Part shown: piece by piece, positions 13,985 to 36,869 of the stretch
Numbering within the stretch: position 1 is the stretch's first letter
Layout of the letters: the number at the start of each line of letters is the position of its first letter
NCBI GenBank assembly: GCA_947481115.1
Contig: CANKEI010000002.1
Span: 1-39,511 of the forward strand
From: a bacterium
Lineage (GTDB): Bacteria; Babelota; Babeliae; Babelales; JABDEC01
Direction of reading: 5' to 3'
DNA: 39,511 nucleotides
The notes under the pieces: model-generated
Seen by the model: the letters and a program-made list of their open reading frames with translations, nothing else
Told to the model about the DNA's origin: nothing
Databases searched by the model: none
Program-made: the position numbers and the translations under genes

Positions 13985-14500
13985 ATGAACCTAAAACCAA
14001 AATTGACACCTAGACTTTCAAATAGCTTATTTAATCAGTTTTTACAAAAATCCAGCTGGGGTTTTACTCTAATTGAACTAATGATCGTAGTGGCGATTAT
14101 CGCTTTTTTATCGATTATTGCAGTACCTAATATCATGAATTTTTTAGCAAAAGCCAAACGCACCGAAGTTTATGTAAATCTCGGGGCCATTTGGGCTGCT
14201 GAAAAATATTATTATAGCGAGCATGGTCGTTATTCTGATGCCTTAACTGGACCTAATGGGATTGGTTGGCGCACCGAAGGTGAGCCGTTATATACTTATG
14301 GTTTTGCGGGTTCTGAAGGCGTAAATTATATGATCGGTAAATTAAAAGCTAGCGGGGCAGATTTAGGTAAATATTCCAGCGCTGGATCAGACGGGTTTAC
14401 TGTAGTCGCCATCGGTGATATTGATGGGGATGGTAAATTAGATGTGATTACCATGAATGATCGGAAGCAGCTTAAAATTGTCGAGGATGATTGTGCTTAA
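13985..14500 (+). CDS. prepilin-type N-terminal cleavage/methylation protein (type IV pilin or GspG-like pseudopilin)
   Basis: A 26-aa leader ends in G, followed by FTLIELMIVVAIIAFL. The mature part is about 145 aa with a C-terminal DxDGDGKLD acidic loop. Confidence 0.85.
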   Translation: MNLKPKLTPRLSNSLFNQFLQKSSWGFTLIELMIVVAIIAFLSIIAVPNIMNFLAKAKRTEVYVNLGAIWAAEKYYYSEHGRYSDALTGPNGIGWRTEGEPLYTYGFAGSEGVNYMIGKLKASGADLGKYSSAGSDGFTVVAIGDIDGDGKLDVITMNDRKQLKIVEDDCA

Positions 14501-14507
14501 ATCACTT

Positions 14508-14565
14508 GCTCGCAACATCCCCCCCTCGACTGACGCTCGGGGTGAGCGGGGTTCGGGACGAGCGG
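14508..14565 (-). repeat. long copy of the GC-rich palindromic repeat family
   Basis: GCTCGCAACATCCCCCCCTCGACTGACGCTCGGGGTGAGCGGGGTTCGGGACGAGCGG. Its reverse complement is identical over 55 nt to 28944-28998. It sits between convergent genes. Confidence 0.9.
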
Positions 14566-14657: not shown

Positions 14658-14903
14658 TTAACAGTTCCAGCAGATTTGGCGGCAATAGCCACGTACGCCT
14701 TTATGCTCATCAGTGATGGCACCAGTCGAGGCTACCTTGCATTTCCAACCACTGCCATAATCGCCATATGCCGCTACTAGATCATTGCAATTGTCGACAG
14801 CTGTCCAACATGGCACACCTTCAATTTCGCTATCATGATGATGATAATGGGCTGATAAGTTAGCAGCTGATAATAATAACAATAAAACTAATAATTTTTT
14901 CAT
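14658..14903 (-). CDS. small secreted Cys-rich protein (6 Cys) with a His-rich segment after the signal peptide
   Basis: GGAG SD plus ATG 14903. MKKLLVLLLLLSAANLSA, then HYHHHDSEIEG and a 6-Cys mature part. The 5' module is shared with the 15576 gene. Confidence 0.75.
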   Translation of the reverse strand: MKKLLVLLLLLSAANLSAHYHHHDSEIEGVPCWTAVDNCNDLVAAYGDYGSGWKCKVASTGAITDEHKGVRGYCRQICWNC

Positions 14904-14916
14904 GATAATCTCCAAA

Positions 14917-15274
14917 TTAATCTTGTGTTAATACGCAAATGCCAGAATTTTCAGAATATGACTCGCAATGTAAATCATTTAAATAACCACTACATGGATT
15001 TAATAAATTTGTTTTACAACTATTAAATAACCCCGGAATATTTTTAGGGTTTTGATAAAATTGGCTATTATAACTGGATGGTATACAAATCTTTTCACCA
15101 TTGCCATTTCCTAATGTTTGACAGAAAAACAATGCCCCGGCAACACTGCCATCACAATATGTTGGATCTTCAGTTTTACATAAAGTAAAGCCGATATCAG
15201 CACCTAAATTTGTGTGTGTGTGTGTGTGTGTGTGTGATTACAACCATTATAGTTAAAGCCAATAGTTTTTTCAT
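14917..15274 (-). CDS. small secreted Cys-rich protein (8 Cys), frame-split at a (CA)13 tract (candidate phase-variable, currently OFF)
   Basis: ATG 15274 gives MKKLLALTIMVVI(TH)4KFRC*. Another frame is open from the tract to 14917 (97 aa, 8 Cys). Confidence 0.65.
15211..15236. repeat. perfect (TG)13 / (CA)13 dinucleotide microsatellite
   Basis: Counted directly: 26 nt of uninterrupted TG on the plus strand. Confidence 0.97.
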
Positions 15275-15331: not shown

Positions 15332-15576
15332 TCAAGTACAAACACCTAAAGGGTTGTCGTTAGCCAAGAAGCCACAGGGTATACATTTTTTTCCTCCGTA
15401 TTGTTCTTCACAATTAGTATCTGGCATCGGGTTAGGTGGTCCTAGCAAAGGTGTCCCATAAGGAGGGGAACAAAGCACAACCGTATCTGAAGAGGCAGGA
15501 CAGTATGCTTTTACGTTGTGTGTGTGTGTGTGTGTGTGATTATAGCCATTATAGTTAAAGCTAATAATTTTTTCAT
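15332..15576 (-). CDS. small secreted Cys-rich protein (6 Cys), frame-split at a (CA)11 tract (candidate phase-variable, currently OFF)
   Basis: GGAG SD plus ATG 15576 gives MKKLLALTIMAIITHTHTHTT*. The frame carrying the Cys-rich part (NVKAYCPASSD..GVCT) has no leader of its own and only a TTG at 15622. Confidence 0.65.
15517..15538. repeat. perfect (TG)11 / (CA)11 dinucleotide microsatellite
   Basis: Counted directly: 22 nt of uninterrupted TG on the plus strand. Confidence 0.97.
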
Positions 15577-15683
15577 GATAATCTCCAAATTTTGCATAAA
15601 ATATTAATAAACGGGGCCCCAAATTTATAAAACTTAATTTATAAAAAGCAGCCCCGTAGATTAATTTATGCTAGTTAATTGTC

Positions 15684-16106
15684 TTACTTTATAACGTATT
15701 GGCAAGTGCCTGCCATGCCCCATAGGGTCATAGCTTCATTTTTATCAGGACTGCAAGTAAGATTTGATGGTTTTTCTTCGCCAGCACCACATGCACCTCT
15801 TTCACCCACGATACACGGCGAACCATTACCATAAGCTTTATTTGAGTGCTTTCTAGTCCATCTTTGCTTTTTAACTTTTTGCACCTCTTGCCATTGAGCT
15901 TGAGTTACACAGTGGCCAGGTTTGCCATCACCCTTAATATCGCCATAACTAAGTAACGGTACACAAACTCTATTAACTGTAGAGCTAATTAAACCACAGC
16001 TATTTTGGGCACCCTGGGTACATTTATTTAATTTTGGAAAGGGTGAAGTGGCCTGTAAACCGGCTGCTGAAAGCAGCGCAATTGATAAAAATAATAACTT
16101 TTTCAT
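15684..16106 (-). CDS. small secreted Cys-rich protein (8 Cys)
   Basis: GGAGG SD plus ATG 16106. Signal peptide MKKLLFLSIALLSAAGLQA. The mature part is about 120 aa with 8 Cys and a basic central segment. Confidence 0.75.
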   Translation of the reverse strand: MKKLLFLSIALLSAAGLQATSPFPKLNKCTQGAQNSCGLISSTVNRVCVPLLSYGDIKGDGKPGHCVTQAQWQEVQKVKKQRWTRKHSNKAYGNGSPCIVGERGACGAGEEKPSNLTCSPDKNEAMTLWGMAGTCQYVIK

Positions 16107-16415: not shown

Positions 16416-17168
16416 TTAAAGCATAATTCTGAGTATTAAATCTTGCCAGTAAATATAAGTTATAGCGCCGAGGGCTAAGTAGGGGCCAAAAGGTATTTTA
16501 CCAGAAAATTGGTTATTGCCAGCGAGAATTTGCATGATACCTACTAAAGAACCTAAGAGCGAGCCTAGCAATAAACTTAACCAGCAGCCTATTGGGCCGG
16601 TAAATGAGCCGATAAATGCCAATAAAAATAGATCACCGGTGCCTAAGCCCTGTTTGTTAGTAAAGTAAGCAAACATAAAATTAGTCAGCCAAAGTAAACT
16701 ATAGCCTAAAATAGCGCCCAGGCCGCTATTAATAACTGTGACGGGTAGATAATTAAAATAACTAAAAATTAAACCCAGGGGGATTAAATAGATTGAGACT
16801 AAATTAGAAATTAAAAAAGTCTCAAGATCCGTACGAATCGTGATAATTAGTGCTGAGCAGAAAATAAAATAAGCTAGCCAATATGTGACTGAAAAGTAAT
16901 AAAAGATCGGCAAGATTGTAACTATTGTGAGTAGTTCGATAATGGGATATAAAATCGAGATTGAATGTTGGCATGAACGACAACGGCCCCAAAGTAAGCA
17001 CCAGGACAATACTGGAATTAAGTCACGAGCTTTAAGATTAGTTAGACAGTGGGGGCAAGTGGAGCGTGATTTACTTAATGTGATATTATCGTGCACTAAG
17101 CGATAAGCTAGTTGATTTAAAAAGGATCCCCAGCAGAGTAGCATTATGATTAAGACGATAAGTGTCAT
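16416..17168 (-). CDS. pilD: prepilin peptidase (A24 family, PilD/GspO-like)
   Basis: N-terminal CPHC..CRSC zinc-binding pairs, multiple TM segments, and a GLGTGDLFLLAFIG aspartyl-protease motif. Confidence 0.88.
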   Translation of the reverse strand: MTLIVLIIMLLCWGSFLNQLAYRLVHDNITLSKSRSTCPHCLTNLKARDLIPVLSWCLLWGRCRSCQHSISILYPIIELLTIVTILPIFYYFSVTYWLAYFIFCSALIITIRTDLETFLISNLVSIYLIPLGLIFSYFNYLPVTVINSGLGAILGYSLLWLTNFMFAYFTNKQGLGTGDLFLLAFIGSFTGPIGCWLSLLLGSLLGSLVGIMQILAGNNQFSGKIPFGPYLALGAITYIYWQDLILRIML

Positions 17169-17181
17169 GATAATCTCTTGT

Positions 17182-17216
17182 CCTCCACATCCCTCGACAA
17201 GCTTCGGGACGAGCGG
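17182..17216 (-). repeat. short variant of the GC-rich palindromic repeat family
   Basis: CCTCCACATCCCTCGACAAGCTTCGGGACGAGCGG. It pairs in inverted orientation with 17281-17329 across a 64-bp AT-rich spacer. Confidence 0.75.
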
Positions 17217-17280
17217 TAATTAGTTTGCTTTTTTATTATAATAAAAATGTTTTACTAAAGCAGAAACAGACAGGTCATCT

Positions 17281-18147: not shown

Positions 18148-19962
18148 TTAATGCACAAATTCGAGTGAGAACGAGATTGTATTAGTCTTATAGACATTCG
18201 CACCACTAAATGGCATCTGACCTTTAACTGTAATCATGCAGCCTGGTGAGACATCGTAAGAGAGTGCGATATTACAGAGCTGAGTCTTCCAGGCACTATT
18301 ATCTTCTAAGCGATCGACATTAAAAGCATGAATGTCAGTTGGGCTATTGTTTTTATATAAGAGCGTATATTTATCTTCCATGTGATTAACATAGAGATAT
18401 TGGAAGTGCATCGAGAAGTGATTATCAAAGTGTCGGGAATTTAAATAAGCGCCGATATGCCAAGTTGTGCCTGGGGCCACGCAGACTGAAGTCTTATATG
18501 GGTAAATAATATTTTGGTAGATATTATTAGGTACGCGGAAACCGTCAAACTCTTTTTTCATAAAGAATGTGCCGCCACCTTCAAAACCGACTTCGCAACT
18601 TTCATAGAAAAATAAACTAATCCCAGTATTAAAATCACCGGCATTATGGCCATTATTACCGAAAGCCACGGATAATGGTTGATCTGGGTTGGTGCCTTTA
18701 GCTGCGCCAAGAGTATAACTTGTGGCAAAGAAGGGCATTAAGGCGCAATCTGGCCAAGCGCTGTCATTGTTTTTATTTAATTCAATCATATAGCGCCAAT
18801 AAAGTTCAGCACGAATATCATCGATCGAAGTAGCTTCGTAGTCGTCTAAATTAATTCCAATTGCTTGGGCCATAGTTGGATTAAATTGTTCCATGAGTTG
18901 CGTATGCAAACAGCTAACCACTTGTTTCCATTGCACGTGTGTTAAAGCATCGACGGTGTTGCTTGAGGCACTACTGCCAGAGCTAGTACCAGTGCTATTT
19001 GCAAAAGGATTTATGGCGCCGGCGACAGTATAGCTATAAAGACCGGTTGAGGCCGAAGCGCCATCATAAAGAGGCAAAGGGTCTGGTTTGGGCGCAGTTG
19101 GATCAATAAATTCGGCACAGTTAGTTAAATGTGAGATACCAGTGGTGACAGACAAGCCAAAACCTTTAGTGAGCATGCCAGCCGCTCTAAAGCGCGCCCC
19201 TCTTTTTTGAAATTTCGTTTTGACCGACAAGAAACCAAAAGTTTCACGCCCATCGCCTTGTAGTTCTAATAAACTTTGTACGGTGTTTAATACGGGGGGA
19301 GTTACAGTAGAGATGGCACCAGTGATCCCGCTAATGCAAGCGAGTGTGTCTTGCGCAATTTGGGCCAGAGTATTGGAAATAGCATAAGCACCAGATGGTA
19401 AATCAGTGCAAGTTTGGCAGTCGCCAAAGCAAGTTGTGCCAGCGCAGGTGCATGGTGCAGTAGGATTAGTAGTTGGGCCACAGTTATACACAGATGGGCA
19501 ATAAGTTATGAATGGTTGGTTAGGTGATGTACAATTTATTGCATCGTAAATACCATATGGCAAGAGTGCTAAGATATTCCAACGGCCAGCGATATCACCG
19601 AGATAAAAACGATCGATTACGGGTAATGTTGGAGTTGTGCCAGCTACTGGAGTTACACCAGTGGTATTAGTGTCGTTAACTGGATTTGGGCCAGGATATT
19701 TGGTGCCGCATTTATTCCAACCGCCATTCGCCTTGTCAAAATAAGGCGTAATCGAAAACTCAATCCCTTGTTCCCATAATGTACTTGAATCACGATTCAA
19801 GAAATCACGTGTGCCATCATATAGGTAGGCAAAAGGGAAATTGCTATCATAAATTGGCGCAGGATCGCTGTTATTCAGCGTAGTGATGACTGATGAATTA
19901 ACTAATGTTGCACCACTGAGTAAGCAGACCAGAAGCGCGAGTCTGCAAAATATCTTTTGCAT
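18148..19962 (-). CDS. large Cys-containing outer-membrane protein, paralogous family with 10757-12007
   Basis: Signal peptide MQKIFCRLALLVCLLSGATLVNS, a Cys cluster (CTCAGTTCFGDCQTCTD), a beta-strand-rich C-terminal half, and a shared SVAFGNNGH motif. Confidence 0.55.
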   Translation of the reverse strand: MQKIFCRLALLVCLLSGATLVNSSVITTLNNSDPAPIYDSNFPFAYLYDGTRDFLNRDSSTLWEQGIEFSITPYFDKANGGWNKCGTKYPGPNPVNDTNTTGVTPVAGTTPTLPVIDRFYLGDIAGRWNILALLPYGIYDAINCTSPNQPFITYCPSVYNCGPTTNPTAPCTCAGTTCFGDCQTCTDLPSGAYAISNTLAQIAQDTLACISGITGAISTVTPPVLNTVQSLLELQGDGRETFGFLSVKTKFQKRGARFRAAGMLTKGFGLSVTTGISHLTNCAEFIDPTAPKPDPLPLYDGASASTGLYSYTVAGAINPFANSTGTSSGSSASSNTVDALTHVQWKQVVSCLHTQLMEQFNPTMAQAIGINLDDYEATSIDDIRAELYWRYMIELNKNNDSAWPDCALMPFFATSYTLGAAKGTNPDQPLSVAFGNNGHNAGDFNTGISLFFYESCEVGFEGGGTFFMKKEFDGFRVPNNIYQNIIYPYKTSVCVAPGTTWHIGAYLNSRHFDNHFSMHFQYLYVNHMEDKYTLLYKNNSPTDIHAFNVDRLEDNSAWKTQLCNIALSYDVSPGCMITVKGQMPFSGANVYKTNTISFSLEFVH

Positions 19963-28327: not shown

Positions 28328-29566
28328 GTGTTTAAATATTTAATTCGTTTAGCCAGTATTTGTTTTTGGCTAGTTATAATTTTAGGTAGTTTGTATACCG
28401 CTAATTATTTAACGCAAAATATTTCTGAACCTAAAGCGATTAATATTTTCACCTGGGTTGACATGATCAATCGCGAGAGTGTTAGTGAATTTGAGCAGCA
28501 AACTGGTATCAAAGTTAATTTAAGTTATTTCAGTAACGCCGAAGAATTATTAACTAAGTTACGTTTAACTAATAGTCAAGATTACGATTTAATTGTCACC
28601 AATGATTATGCTATCGAGTCTTTAATTAAACATGATCTAGTGCAAAAAATTGATCATACTAAATTAAATTTTTGGTCACAAATTGATCCAAATTTATTAA
28701 ATTTTTATTATGATCCGAAAAACTTATACTCGATCCCGTTCTATTGGGATATTTATGGGCTGGGTTATGTTACAGAAAATTTAGGCCAAAAGCATCACCA
28801 ACAAAATTTACAGAATTTAATTTCGGATAATCACACACCAGCTTTAAAAGTTAAATTAAATACTGGAAATATACTAGATACCCCAGAGCTTAGTTGGGGC
28901 TTAGTATTTAATTCAGCACATAATTCACAAAATAATCTTTCTACCGCTCGTCCCGAACCCCGCTCACCCCGAGCGTCAGTCGAGGGGGGGATGTTGCGGG
29001 TACCTAATTCACAAATTGCTATGTTAGACAATGGCTTAGAGGCGGTACTGTGTGCCGGACAATATTTATTTGGTTCATCTGATAGTTTGCAACCAGCGCA
29101 ATTGCCGAAAATTCGTACATTATTAATTCAACAGAAAAATTTTATCACAGCCTATACTGACGAAAAAGCAGGCTTTTTACTAGCTGCTGGTGACGTACAG
29201 TTAGCAGTCACGCAAAGTGCTTTTATTCATCGTGTGATCAAACGACAGCCGGAGATTAAATTTGGGATCCCTAAAGAAGGGGGCTTTATGGTAGTTGATG
29301 CGTTTGTGATTTCCAAATATAGTACTAAACTTGACTGGGTCTATAAATTTTTAAATTTTATTTATCAGCCTAAATTTATTGATCAAACTGTGACTCAATT
29401 TGCTTATCTACCAGTTTTGACTAGCAGTTTACAACAAGCAGATTTAAATTATCTGGGTGGCTTTGATAAGTTGTTTAAGCAAGATTTTAAAAAGTTACAA
29501 TTTTTTAAGCGCAATTTACCATTACAAGAAGTAAATAAAATTTGGGTTGATGTTAAAGCTGCATAA
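28328..29566 (+). CDS. potD: polyamine-type extracellular solute-binding protein carrying a repeat-derived insertion
   Basis: Operon position after potABC, an N-terminal anchor, and a PotD/PotF-like N-terminal half (INIFTWVDMI..). The insert ..ARPEPRSPRASVEGGMLR.. is encoded by the repeat. Confidence 0.75.
   Translation: MFKYLIRLASICFWLVIILGSLYTANYLTQNISEPKAINIFTWVDMINRESVSEFEQQTGIKVNLSYFSNAEELLTKLRLTNSQDYDLIVTNDYAIESLIKHDLVQKIDHTKLNFWSQIDPNLLNFYYDPKNLYSIPFYWDIYGLGYVTENLGQKHHQQNLQNLISDNHTPALKVKLNTGNILDTPELSWGLVFNSAHNSQNNLSTARPEPRSPRASVEGGMLRVPNSQIAMLDNGLEAVLCAGQYLFGSSDSLQPAQLPKIRTLLIQQKNFITAYTDEKAGFLLAAGDVQLAVTQSAFIHRVIKRQPEIKFGIPKEGGFMVVDAFVISKYSTKLDWVYKFLNFIYQPKFIDQTVTQFAYLPVLTSSLQQADLNYLGGFDKLFKQDFKKLQFFKRNLPLQEVNKIWVDVKAA
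28944..28998 (+). repeat. long copy of the GC-rich palindromic repeat family, in-frame inside potD
   Basis: CCGCTCGTCCCGAACCCCGCTCACCCCGAGCGTCAGTCGAGGGGGGGATGTTGCG. Identical over 55 nt to the reverse complement of 14508-14565. Confidence 0.9.
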
Positions 29567-35313: not shown

Positions 35314-35373
35314 AAAAACCCCCAAAAATTATAAGTTTAAAATTATTTTACTAATCTATATCTGAATCTTTAT

Positions 35374-36184: not shown

Positions 36185-36193
36185 CCCCCCCCC
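36185..36193. repeat. C9 (G9 on the coding strand) homopolymer, with 4 nt between it and the ATG of the J-domain gene
   Basis: Minus strand reads TTATTTTGGGGGGGGGTTTCATG. The paralog has G5 at the equivalent position (35319-35323). Confidence 0.9.
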
Positions 36194-36676: not shown

Positions 36677-36735
36677 CTCGCTACATCCCCCCCCTCGACT
36701 GACGCTCGGGGTGAGCGGGGTTCGGGACGAGCGGG
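36677..36735 (-). repeat. long copy of the GC-rich palindromic repeat family
   Basis: CTCGCTACATCCCCCCCCTCGACTGACGCTCGGGGTGAGCGGGGTTCGGGACGAGCGGG. Differs from the 14508 copy by one extra C in the homopolymer run and one substitution. Confidence 0.9.
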
Positions 36736-36869
36736 AAAAAATTTTATTTCAAGATAGTTACGGAAGAGCTCTATTATGCAAATCCAGAAGCTTAAAAAAT
36801 CTTAATCTCGCTTAATTTTATTAGTAATTTTTCTAGCAGCTACTTTTTAATACTTGGCTTTATGAGTGC

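Follow-up and report, generated by a model that had tools for sequence, protein, structure and literature searches.

Almost all known cases of repeat-driven phase variation come from animal pathogens and commensals. The opa genes of Neisseria carry CTCTT pentamer repeats in the region coding for the signal peptide, where the repeats encode part of the hydrophobic core, and the approximately 4-11 dispersed copies of this family recombine and have been proven to switch independently. Helicobacter pylori oipA has CT repeats in its signal-peptide region, followed at the cleavage site by a FWLHA motif that does not vary (PMC10564699), and in Bartonella simple sequence repeats (SSRs) mediate host adaptation (PMC11466379). 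In prokaryotes, selection generally acts against long mono- and dinucleotide SSRs, whose enrichment at the N-terminus is a proposed signature of phase variation (PMC3315296). Here we describe two adjacent genes, A and B, on a 39,511-nucleotide (nt) contig (CANKEI010000002.1 of assembly GCA_947481115.1, positions 1 to 39,511, hereafter the window), in which a pure CA repeat joins a signal-peptide leader to a Cys-rich domain that lies in another reading frame. It is certain that A and B are real genes that SSR frameshifts have inactivated, and their 11-13 pure units make this inactivation mutationally reversible in principle. That the reversibility is used as a phase-variation switch is the reading we favor, with a probability of roughly 0.55, and explanations other than such a switch or repeat-driven gene loss are improbable even when taken together.

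Translation of gene B from ATG 15576 gives MKKLLALTIMAII, followed by a perfect (CA)11 tract that forms codons 13-20 (Tandem Repeats Finder: period 2, 11.0 copies, 100% matches) and then by ACG TAA, with the stop at 15511-15513; the whole reading up to this TAA is MKKLLALTIMAIITHTHTHTT. The Cys-rich body (NVKAYCPASS...PLGVCT; 15335-15517) comprises 61 amino acids (aa) with 6 Cys in the +2 frame, which ends at 15332. When the tract was set to 6-17 CA units in silico, full-length products of 78, 80, 82 and 84 aa arose only at 7, 10, 13 and 16 units, respectively, and every other length gave a truncated product. At its present 11 units gene B is OFF, and loss of one unit or gain of two restores the frame with the junction ...HTHNVKA. 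An earlier interpretation made without database searches (the sequence-only reading) had reported the GGAG ahead of the ATG, the tract and the TAA, had placed the 6-Cys part in a different frame and had predicted that 10 or 13 units would rejoin it, and all of these statements held up. It had also taken leader, tract and Cys-rich body to be one gene, a model that is right because every in-frame copy has the MKKLL leader continuous with the Cys-rich body, including the B genes of the three lineages L010, L007 and clade 3 (see below). Gene A, which starts at ATG 15274, is ON in silico at 8, 11, 14 and 17 units, so that addition of one unit to its 13 restores the frame. As they stand in the window strain, B and A can encode only peptides of 21 and 25 aa, respectively; an in-frame orthologue of gene A (P0002, 116 aa) carries (CA)5 and a divergent allele (P0003, 131 aa) carries (CA)8.

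The leaders are laid out as an MKK n-region, a hydrophobic core of about 10 residues and (TH)n, after which comes the first AXA-like site. In every member this first site lies 3' of the tract: VKA↓Y in B, LGA↓D or LKA↓D in A and LKA↓W in the B gene of clade 3. With cleavage sites predicted by the -3/-1 rule only, the repeat would occupy the c-region of the predicted signal peptide, upstream of the signal-peptidase site, and in-frame length variants would give rise to the same mature protein because the tract is upstream of the predicted cleavage site. At the nearest ON lengths the cleaved leader would measure 23-26 residues. Neither A and B nor their neighbors C and D matched any entry in Pfam, NCBIfam or PDB sequences at permissive thresholds, and a profile search of the A family, run exhaustively over 1.84 billion proteins, returned five representatives only, none of which has a long in-frame (TH)n and one of which (P0040) resides in an unrelated genomic context. 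AlphaFold2 models were of low confidence, with a mean predicted local distance difference test score of 52 for the B body (single sequence) and of 54 for the A body (3-sequence alignment). The adjacency of these genes to pilin and PilD genes, along with their export signals and dense disulfide potential, suggests by inference an envelope or host-contact role for the proteins of the cluster.

The only start codon in the Cys-rich frame of gene B is, as had been noted before and as we confirm, TTG 15622, which yields a 96-aa open reading frame (ORF; 15332..15622) that is the longest at the locus and is picked by gene callers (P0001). We considered whether this leaderless ORF could be the real, constitutively made product, with the ATG leader as a separate small ORF, a rival that the sequence-only reading had itself put forward. 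However, no Shine-Dalgarno sequence precedes the TTG (15620-15622), which forms part of the 3' arm of a strong, U-tailed hairpin (minimum free energy -32.2 kcal/mol, z = -4.11; 0/200 shuffles fold as well) that is probably the terminator of gene D. Moreover, the N-terminal 35 residues of the ORF have no counterpart in any relative, the relatives use the MKKLL leader in frame with the same body instead, and a 6-Cys domain devoid of an export signal would stay in the reducing cytoplasm. We regard this rival as very improbable and the 96-aa ORF as an artefact of the frameshift. Gene callers are also inconsistent at this place, calling nothing between D and C on long contigs (L011, L012) and the spurious 96-aa TTG ORF on short ones (L001-L006), and both frameshifted genes are effectively invisible in the annotation of metagenome-assembled genomes.

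The tracts stand far outside chance expectation. Sixteen (CA)5 words occur in the window versus 0.02 expected from dinucleotide-preserving shuffles of it, all of them inside the A and B tracts, which are the only dinucleotide repeats of at least 5 units in these 39.5 kb. Dinucleotide repeats are prone to stutter in the polymerase chain reaction and several short contigs end near the tracts, as would be seen if the true lengths were in frame and had been mis-called during sequencing or assembly. Yet the same lengths recur in separately assembled metagenome contigs (B with 11 units in 9/9, A with 13 units in 8/8), representing at least 9 assemblies and two different pipelines, and therefore the lengths are not assembly noise. 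Retrieval of contigs by P0001 forces B to have 11 units, but even so all five of those contigs that span the tract of A have 13 units; a tract-independent look-up via gene C provided four spanning contigs (L001, L011, L012 and L014), all with 11 and 13. The contig ends near the tracts, which we also considered and rejected as a sign of length heterogeneity, are accounted for in Logan by 31-mers of the leader and upstream block that are exactly duplicated and break the assembly; in ENA, contig ends are scattered. An artefactual origin of the frameshifts therefore deserves scarcely any credence.

To compare orthologous loci from five lineages, we used the proteins in their ON form as queries and next anchored the loci on the tract-free C, D and PilD genes. 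(Scans of genome and metagenome contigs with a leader-plus-tract DNA pattern gave no match, the relatives differing at positions fixed in the pattern; the 604-aa neighbor of the cluster found no relative in GTDB genomes when used as query, and gene C only re-found L013 in JGI metagenomes.) The window strain has the order D-B-A-C with both genes out of frame. In L010/L030 the order is D-B-A'-C, with B (CA)7 and A' (CA)8 both in frame, and in L007-L009 (three samples) it is D-A-B-C, with B (AC)6 and A (CA)5 likewise in frame. L013 has D-A'-C, the B body being lost and A' having a long tract that is out of frame. Clade 3 (L021-L028; 8 contigs, including GCA_035287785.1) has D-B-C and no gene A, and its B gene, MKKLLIIILVIITHNGLKA↓WNGG..., is in frame with no tract ('IITHNG'). 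Tract lengths across lineages are thus 0, 6, 7 and 11 units for B and 5, 8, 13 and 13 (one with a C-to-T interruption) for A/A', and the ON/OFF state changes along with them. The stochastic switching postulated in the sequence-only reading finds agreement here, as between-lineage changes in tract length and ON/OFF state match the prediction for slipped-strand mispairing. Comparison of these sequences identifies the Thr-His codon pair (ACA CAC) as the ancestral seed of the repeat. In the mechanism we propose, this pair, located where the hydrophobic core meets the cleavage region, would have grown into a microsatellite of pure (CA)n, n would shift in 2-nt steps by slipped-strand mispairing, with the Cys-rich domain translated in one register of three, and a single slippage event would restore each gene (-1 unit for B, +1 unit for A). 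Slippage would presumably occur at a useful rate in this organism, and the resulting ON/OFF heterogeneity would be adaptive, as in a contingency locus, and not a side effect of repeats growing in genes that the cell can do without. Transcriptional slippage across the (CA)n tract was set aside, as was programmed ribosomal frameshifting there, for want of sequence support. Known transcriptional slippage favors homopolymers.

The locus is also evolving fast and by recombination. Relative to their L007 orthologues, A is 73% and B 44% identical, whereas identity is 90-97% for the flanking 604-aa protein, RbfA and S21. Gene C is 99.6% identical in DNA between the window and L010, while A (window 14917-15274) and A' (L010:257-652, L013:600-1000) share 45% identity in protein and cannot be aligned as DNA. 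In L010 A', the upstream region of gene A (24/24 nt) is joined at the ATG to the leader of gene B (38/38 nt); in L013, the upstream region and leader of gene B are fused to the A' body, with the B body deleted. Within the window, gene C has a copy of the upstream/start block of gene B, 97% identical over 36 nt. These junctions indicate that the leader-tract block is a recombination substrate that forms the 5' bound of the A/A' swap, with leaders homogenised by gene conversion. The 'same leader' that the sequence-only reading had attributed to A and B is real in that the two leaders are near-identical, but it is not an independent occurrence, reflecting paralogy and gene conversion instead. In one clade-3 contig (L028:1369-2056, SRR22388141), a ParE-toxin-family gene and two small neighbors are inserted between PilD and D, another sign of a plastic intergenic neighborhood. 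Predicted to be secreted, restricted to few lineages, orphan and evolving much faster than their neighbors, A and B fit the profile of contingency genes, and the fast evolution and mosaic recombination of the locus resemble those of a host-interaction locus. An extended version of the switch, in which the ribosome-binding site, the MKKLLALTIM leader and (CA)n form a portable switch cassette spread by gene conversion among tandem Babeliales secreted-protein genes, and in which this module also serves as the 5' boundary for swapping highly divergent effector bodies, so that independent phase variation of two genes would be combined with allelic cassette replacement, strikes us as unlikely. Were it true, it would provide an obligate protist parasite with a stochastic surface or effector repertoire and with bet-hedging on host range, and, going by the literature searched, no contingency system would have been described before it in Dependentiae or in another environmental parasite of protists.

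The principal alternative to a switch is that A and B are repeat-expansion pseudogenes, i.e. dispensable, lineage-specific genes in a reduced, host-dependent genome, in which the proto-repeat ACACAC lengthened by drift until slippage put each gene out of frame. The OFF state would then be the first step of loss, and reversion, though physically possible, would be neither selected nor used. Several observations favor this alternative or weigh against a switch. First, among the gene-lineages all five tracts of at most 8 units are ON and all three of at least 11 units are OFF (Fisher test 1/56). Three OFF and no ON state among long tracts has a random-phase probability of 0.30, and the pattern is also compatible with expansion only after the genes had become dispensable. 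Second, the sequence-only reading had argued that two genes each one unit from ON, in opposite directions, are hard to explain as random decay, an argument without statistical weight: every OFF state is one unit from ON because a 2-nt unit cycles the registers with a period of 3, and two OFF genes are unremarkable when two thirds of random tract lengths are OFF. Third, the 11 and 13 units are invariant in all strain contigs (9 for B, 8 for A), and no ON allele (80/82 aa for B, 117/119 aa for A), which our protein searches should have recovered, is called as a protein in a collection of 15 billion proteins. Absence of length polymorphism is what the sequence-only reading had said would speak against switching, and no within-strain variation, and hence no repeat polymorphism within a population, was seen at the level of contig consensus. 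This is a weak test, and the constancy of 11/13 is weak evidence against switching and none in its favor: the strain contigs are consensus sequences, nearly clonal (1 single-nucleotide polymorphism in total), apparently from one or two freshwater studies and probably include the samples behind the window assembly, and many different slippage rates could produce a sharply peaked length distribution in a clone of recent expansion. Fourth, loss of the B body in L013 and absence of A from clade 3 reveal that the genes are dispensable. Fifth, gene B has a ratio of nonsynonymous to synonymous substitution rates (dN/dS) of ~1.9 versus L010, based on roughly a dozen changes, which fits either relaxed constraint or diversifying selection. 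Sixth, a scan for consensus promoters and terminators found 11 promoter-like sites versus 7.8 expected, not above background.

One case of decay is the long-tract A' copy of L013 (L013:600-720, JGI sample 3300028623), which runs counter to the earlier dismissal of random decay. It has a GTG start, a Leu-to-Ser exchange in the leader (KKSL for KKLL), an interrupted tract, (CA)11-TA-CA, of 13 units with one C-to-T change (+10 nt versus L010) and a second frameshift, a -1 deletion in an A-run 48 nt 3' of the tract (net +9 nt), although the copy is known from a single short low-coverage contig and the homopolymer deletion may be an error. We considered the -1 deletion as a compensatory rescue and rejected this idea on account of stop codons between the two lesions. 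No tract length can restore this copy, which is dead, and an OFF state can hence become permanent.

On the other hand, both window copies have perfectly pure tracts and are otherwise intact, with bodies open for 97 (A) and 61 (B) codons and all 8 and 6 Cys retained, although at the small divergence from L010 (synonymous divergence 0.02-0.05) the lack of secondary lesions is not statistically informative. Both indels of gene B versus L010 are in frame, and the long-range dN/dS of 0.21 for B and 0.29 for A indicates constraint on both at the protein level. Prokaryotic coding DNA generally experiences selection against long pure dinucleotide tracts (PMC3315296), yet here one is found twice, and both tracts reside at the one position of the gene where in-frame changes cost nothing. 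The window thus holds much of what characterizes a contingency locus: a perfect SSR in the 5' coding region that exceeds chance, whole-unit changes that shift the frame, one register of which yields an intact and conserved protein, and differences between lineages in repeat number and ON/OFF state. On balance we retain the phase-variation switch as the preferred reading and regard repeat-driven gene loss, for which the evidence is genuine, as less probable.

The organism, an uncultured bacterium, belongs, as judged from database matches, to the phylum Dependentiae (TM6), order Babeliales. The window has 37% guanine plus cytosine (GC) and encodes the housekeeping proteins PheT, LspA-PgpA, MreB, RsmA, GltX, MetG and TopA along with Ankyrin/DnaJ-domain proteins, and the C and RsmA proteins are at least 90% identical to HLB94078.1 and HLB93774.1, both listed at NCBI under 'Candidatus Babeliales bacterium'. 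The lineage was not found among the GTDB species representatives searched, and its freshwater habitat rests on the listing of a sibling BioSample (SAMN08331091). Dependentiae are intracellular parasites of protists that are known from genomes and a few isolates (PMC4776705, PMC6561590), and Chromulinavorax, a cultured member, has mutL/S (PMC6561590). Mismatch repair bears on how stable dinucleotide repeats are.

Coordinates of the cluster and of associated features in the window
Feature	Position	Strand	Description
Gene B	15332..15576	minus	Signal-peptide leader, (CA)11 and 61-aa 6-Cys domain predicted to be secreted; frameshifted (OFF) in the window strain
Shine-Dalgarno GGAG of gene B	15584..15587	minus	7 nt 5' of ATG 15576
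(CA)11 tract of gene B	15517..15538	minus (plus-strand TG)	Encodes (Thr-His)n between the signal-peptide hydrophobic core and the predicted VKA↓Y site
RNA hairpin and U-rich run between D and B	15594..15671	minus	GC stem arms at ~15650-15657 and 15611-15618
Gene A	14917..15274	minus	Leader near-identical to that of B, (CA)13 and 97-aa 8-Cys domain predicted to be secreted; OFF
(CA)13 tract of gene A	15211..15236	minus	Upstream of the predicted LGA↓D cleavage site
Gene C	14658..14903	minus	Intact 81-aa secreted 6-Cys protein without tract; dN/dS 0.0-0.09 (conserved)
Gene D	15684..16106	minus	Intact 140-aa secreted 8-Cys protein; first of the cluster, directly 3' of PilD
Prepilin peptidase gene PilD	16416-17168		Pfam A24_N_bact and Peptidase_A24
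Type IV pilin gene	13985-14500		N_methyl motif; convergent with the cluster
GC-rich repeat copies	14500-14565, 28944-29009, 36688-36749		
GC-rich repeat, partial copies	2647-2694, 17179-17231		

The four small minus-strand genes D, B, A and C lie between the PilD and pilin genes, and all begin with MKKLL. B and A are separated by 57 nt and their tracts by 302 bp, the stop of A lies 13 nt from the start of C, and gene C has its own GGAG. B, A and C may form a single transcription unit 3' of the terminator-like hairpin, and premature termination in A, which leaves ~280 nt untranslated before C, could lower expression of C by polarity. The predicted mature N-terminus of C is His-rich (LSA↓HYHHHDSE; 14844-14861, minus strand, codons 18-24) and invariant in all lineages. 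This His-rich stretch sits, in relative terms, where A and B have their (Thr-His)n, possibly a trace of a common ancestral motif that contained His close to the cleavage site.

One copy of a GC-rich intergenic repeat family (~47-66 nt, core CCGCTCGTCCCGAACCCCGCTCACCCCGAGCGTCAGTCGAGGGGGGG) lies directly 3' of gene C and separates the Cys-rich cluster from the convergent pilin gene. The family occurs in both orientations in this otherwise AT-rich genome and resembles repetitive extragenic palindromes or miniature inverted-repeat transposable elements. The 604-aa protein next to the cluster (18148-19962, minus strand) is secreted and Cys-rich as well (e.g. TCTCAGTTCFGDCQTCTD), is 90% identical in the L007 lineage with a dN/dS of 0.08, has no match in Pfam, NCBIfam or PDB sequences and no relative among GTDB representatives, and may be a lineage-specific major envelope protein. 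Elsewhere in the window, a G9 run (36185-36193, minus strand) occupies the Shine-Dalgarno position 4 nt 5' of ATG 36180 of a DnaJ-domain protein gene and is the only G/C homopolymer of at least 9 bases. The neighboring Ankyrin/DnaJ paralogue (ATG 35312) has only G5 at the equivalent place (35316-35320), the two gene starts being 72% identical over 223 nt. The G9 run could represent another hypermutable site, one that affects the initiation of translation.

If confirmed, a switch at this locus would extend contingency loci to the arms race between bacteria and protists in the environment, Dependentiae being a mostly uncultured phylum whose members are intracellular parasites of amoebae and other protists, and it would flag orphan small Cys-rich secreted proteins beside type IV pilus genes as likely host-interaction factors. 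No link of Dependentiae to phase variation or SSRs was found in the literature searched, and searches of Pfam, NCBIfam and PDB sequences at permissive thresholds revealed no homology to the Hop/OipA or Opa outer-membrane families, so that the analogy with these systems is mechanistic only.

The closest counterpart is oipA (hopH) of H. pylori, along with sabA, hopZ and babB, in which, as here, a dinucleotide repeat in the 5' signal-peptide coding region shifts the frame by slippage, a fixed motif is regained before the cleavage site in ON alleles (FWLHA in OipA, VKA↓Y or LGA↓D here), strains vary in ON/OFF state and repeat number, and several paralogues carry such a tract. By contrast, the unit is CT there and CA, encoding (Thr-His)n, here; the products are beta-barrel outer-membrane proteins there and small (~60-100 aa mature) orphan Cys-rich proteins here; and an animal pathogen is involved there versus an environmental, presumably protist-associated Dependentiae bacterium here. 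For oipA, moreover, variation within and between isolates and the ON/OFF state of the protein have been documented experimentally, whereas no within-strain variation was seen here. The opa genes likewise form a paralogous family of surface proteins in which each gene has its own leader-region tract and the copies recombine with each other, but the opa unit is a pentamer and the copies are dispersed, while here the unit is CA, the two genes are adjacent and their independent switching is hypothesized. As in contingency loci in the sense of Moxon, the repeats lie near the N-terminus of surface or host-interaction genes in host-associated bacteria; that class requires demonstrated high-frequency reversible switching, whereas here the layout is known from sequence. 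ON/OFF control by an SSR in the signal-peptide coding region is of a known kind, and what is new is the unusual CA unit with its Thr-His product, the orphan protein families and a phylum for which the literature searched contains no such case.

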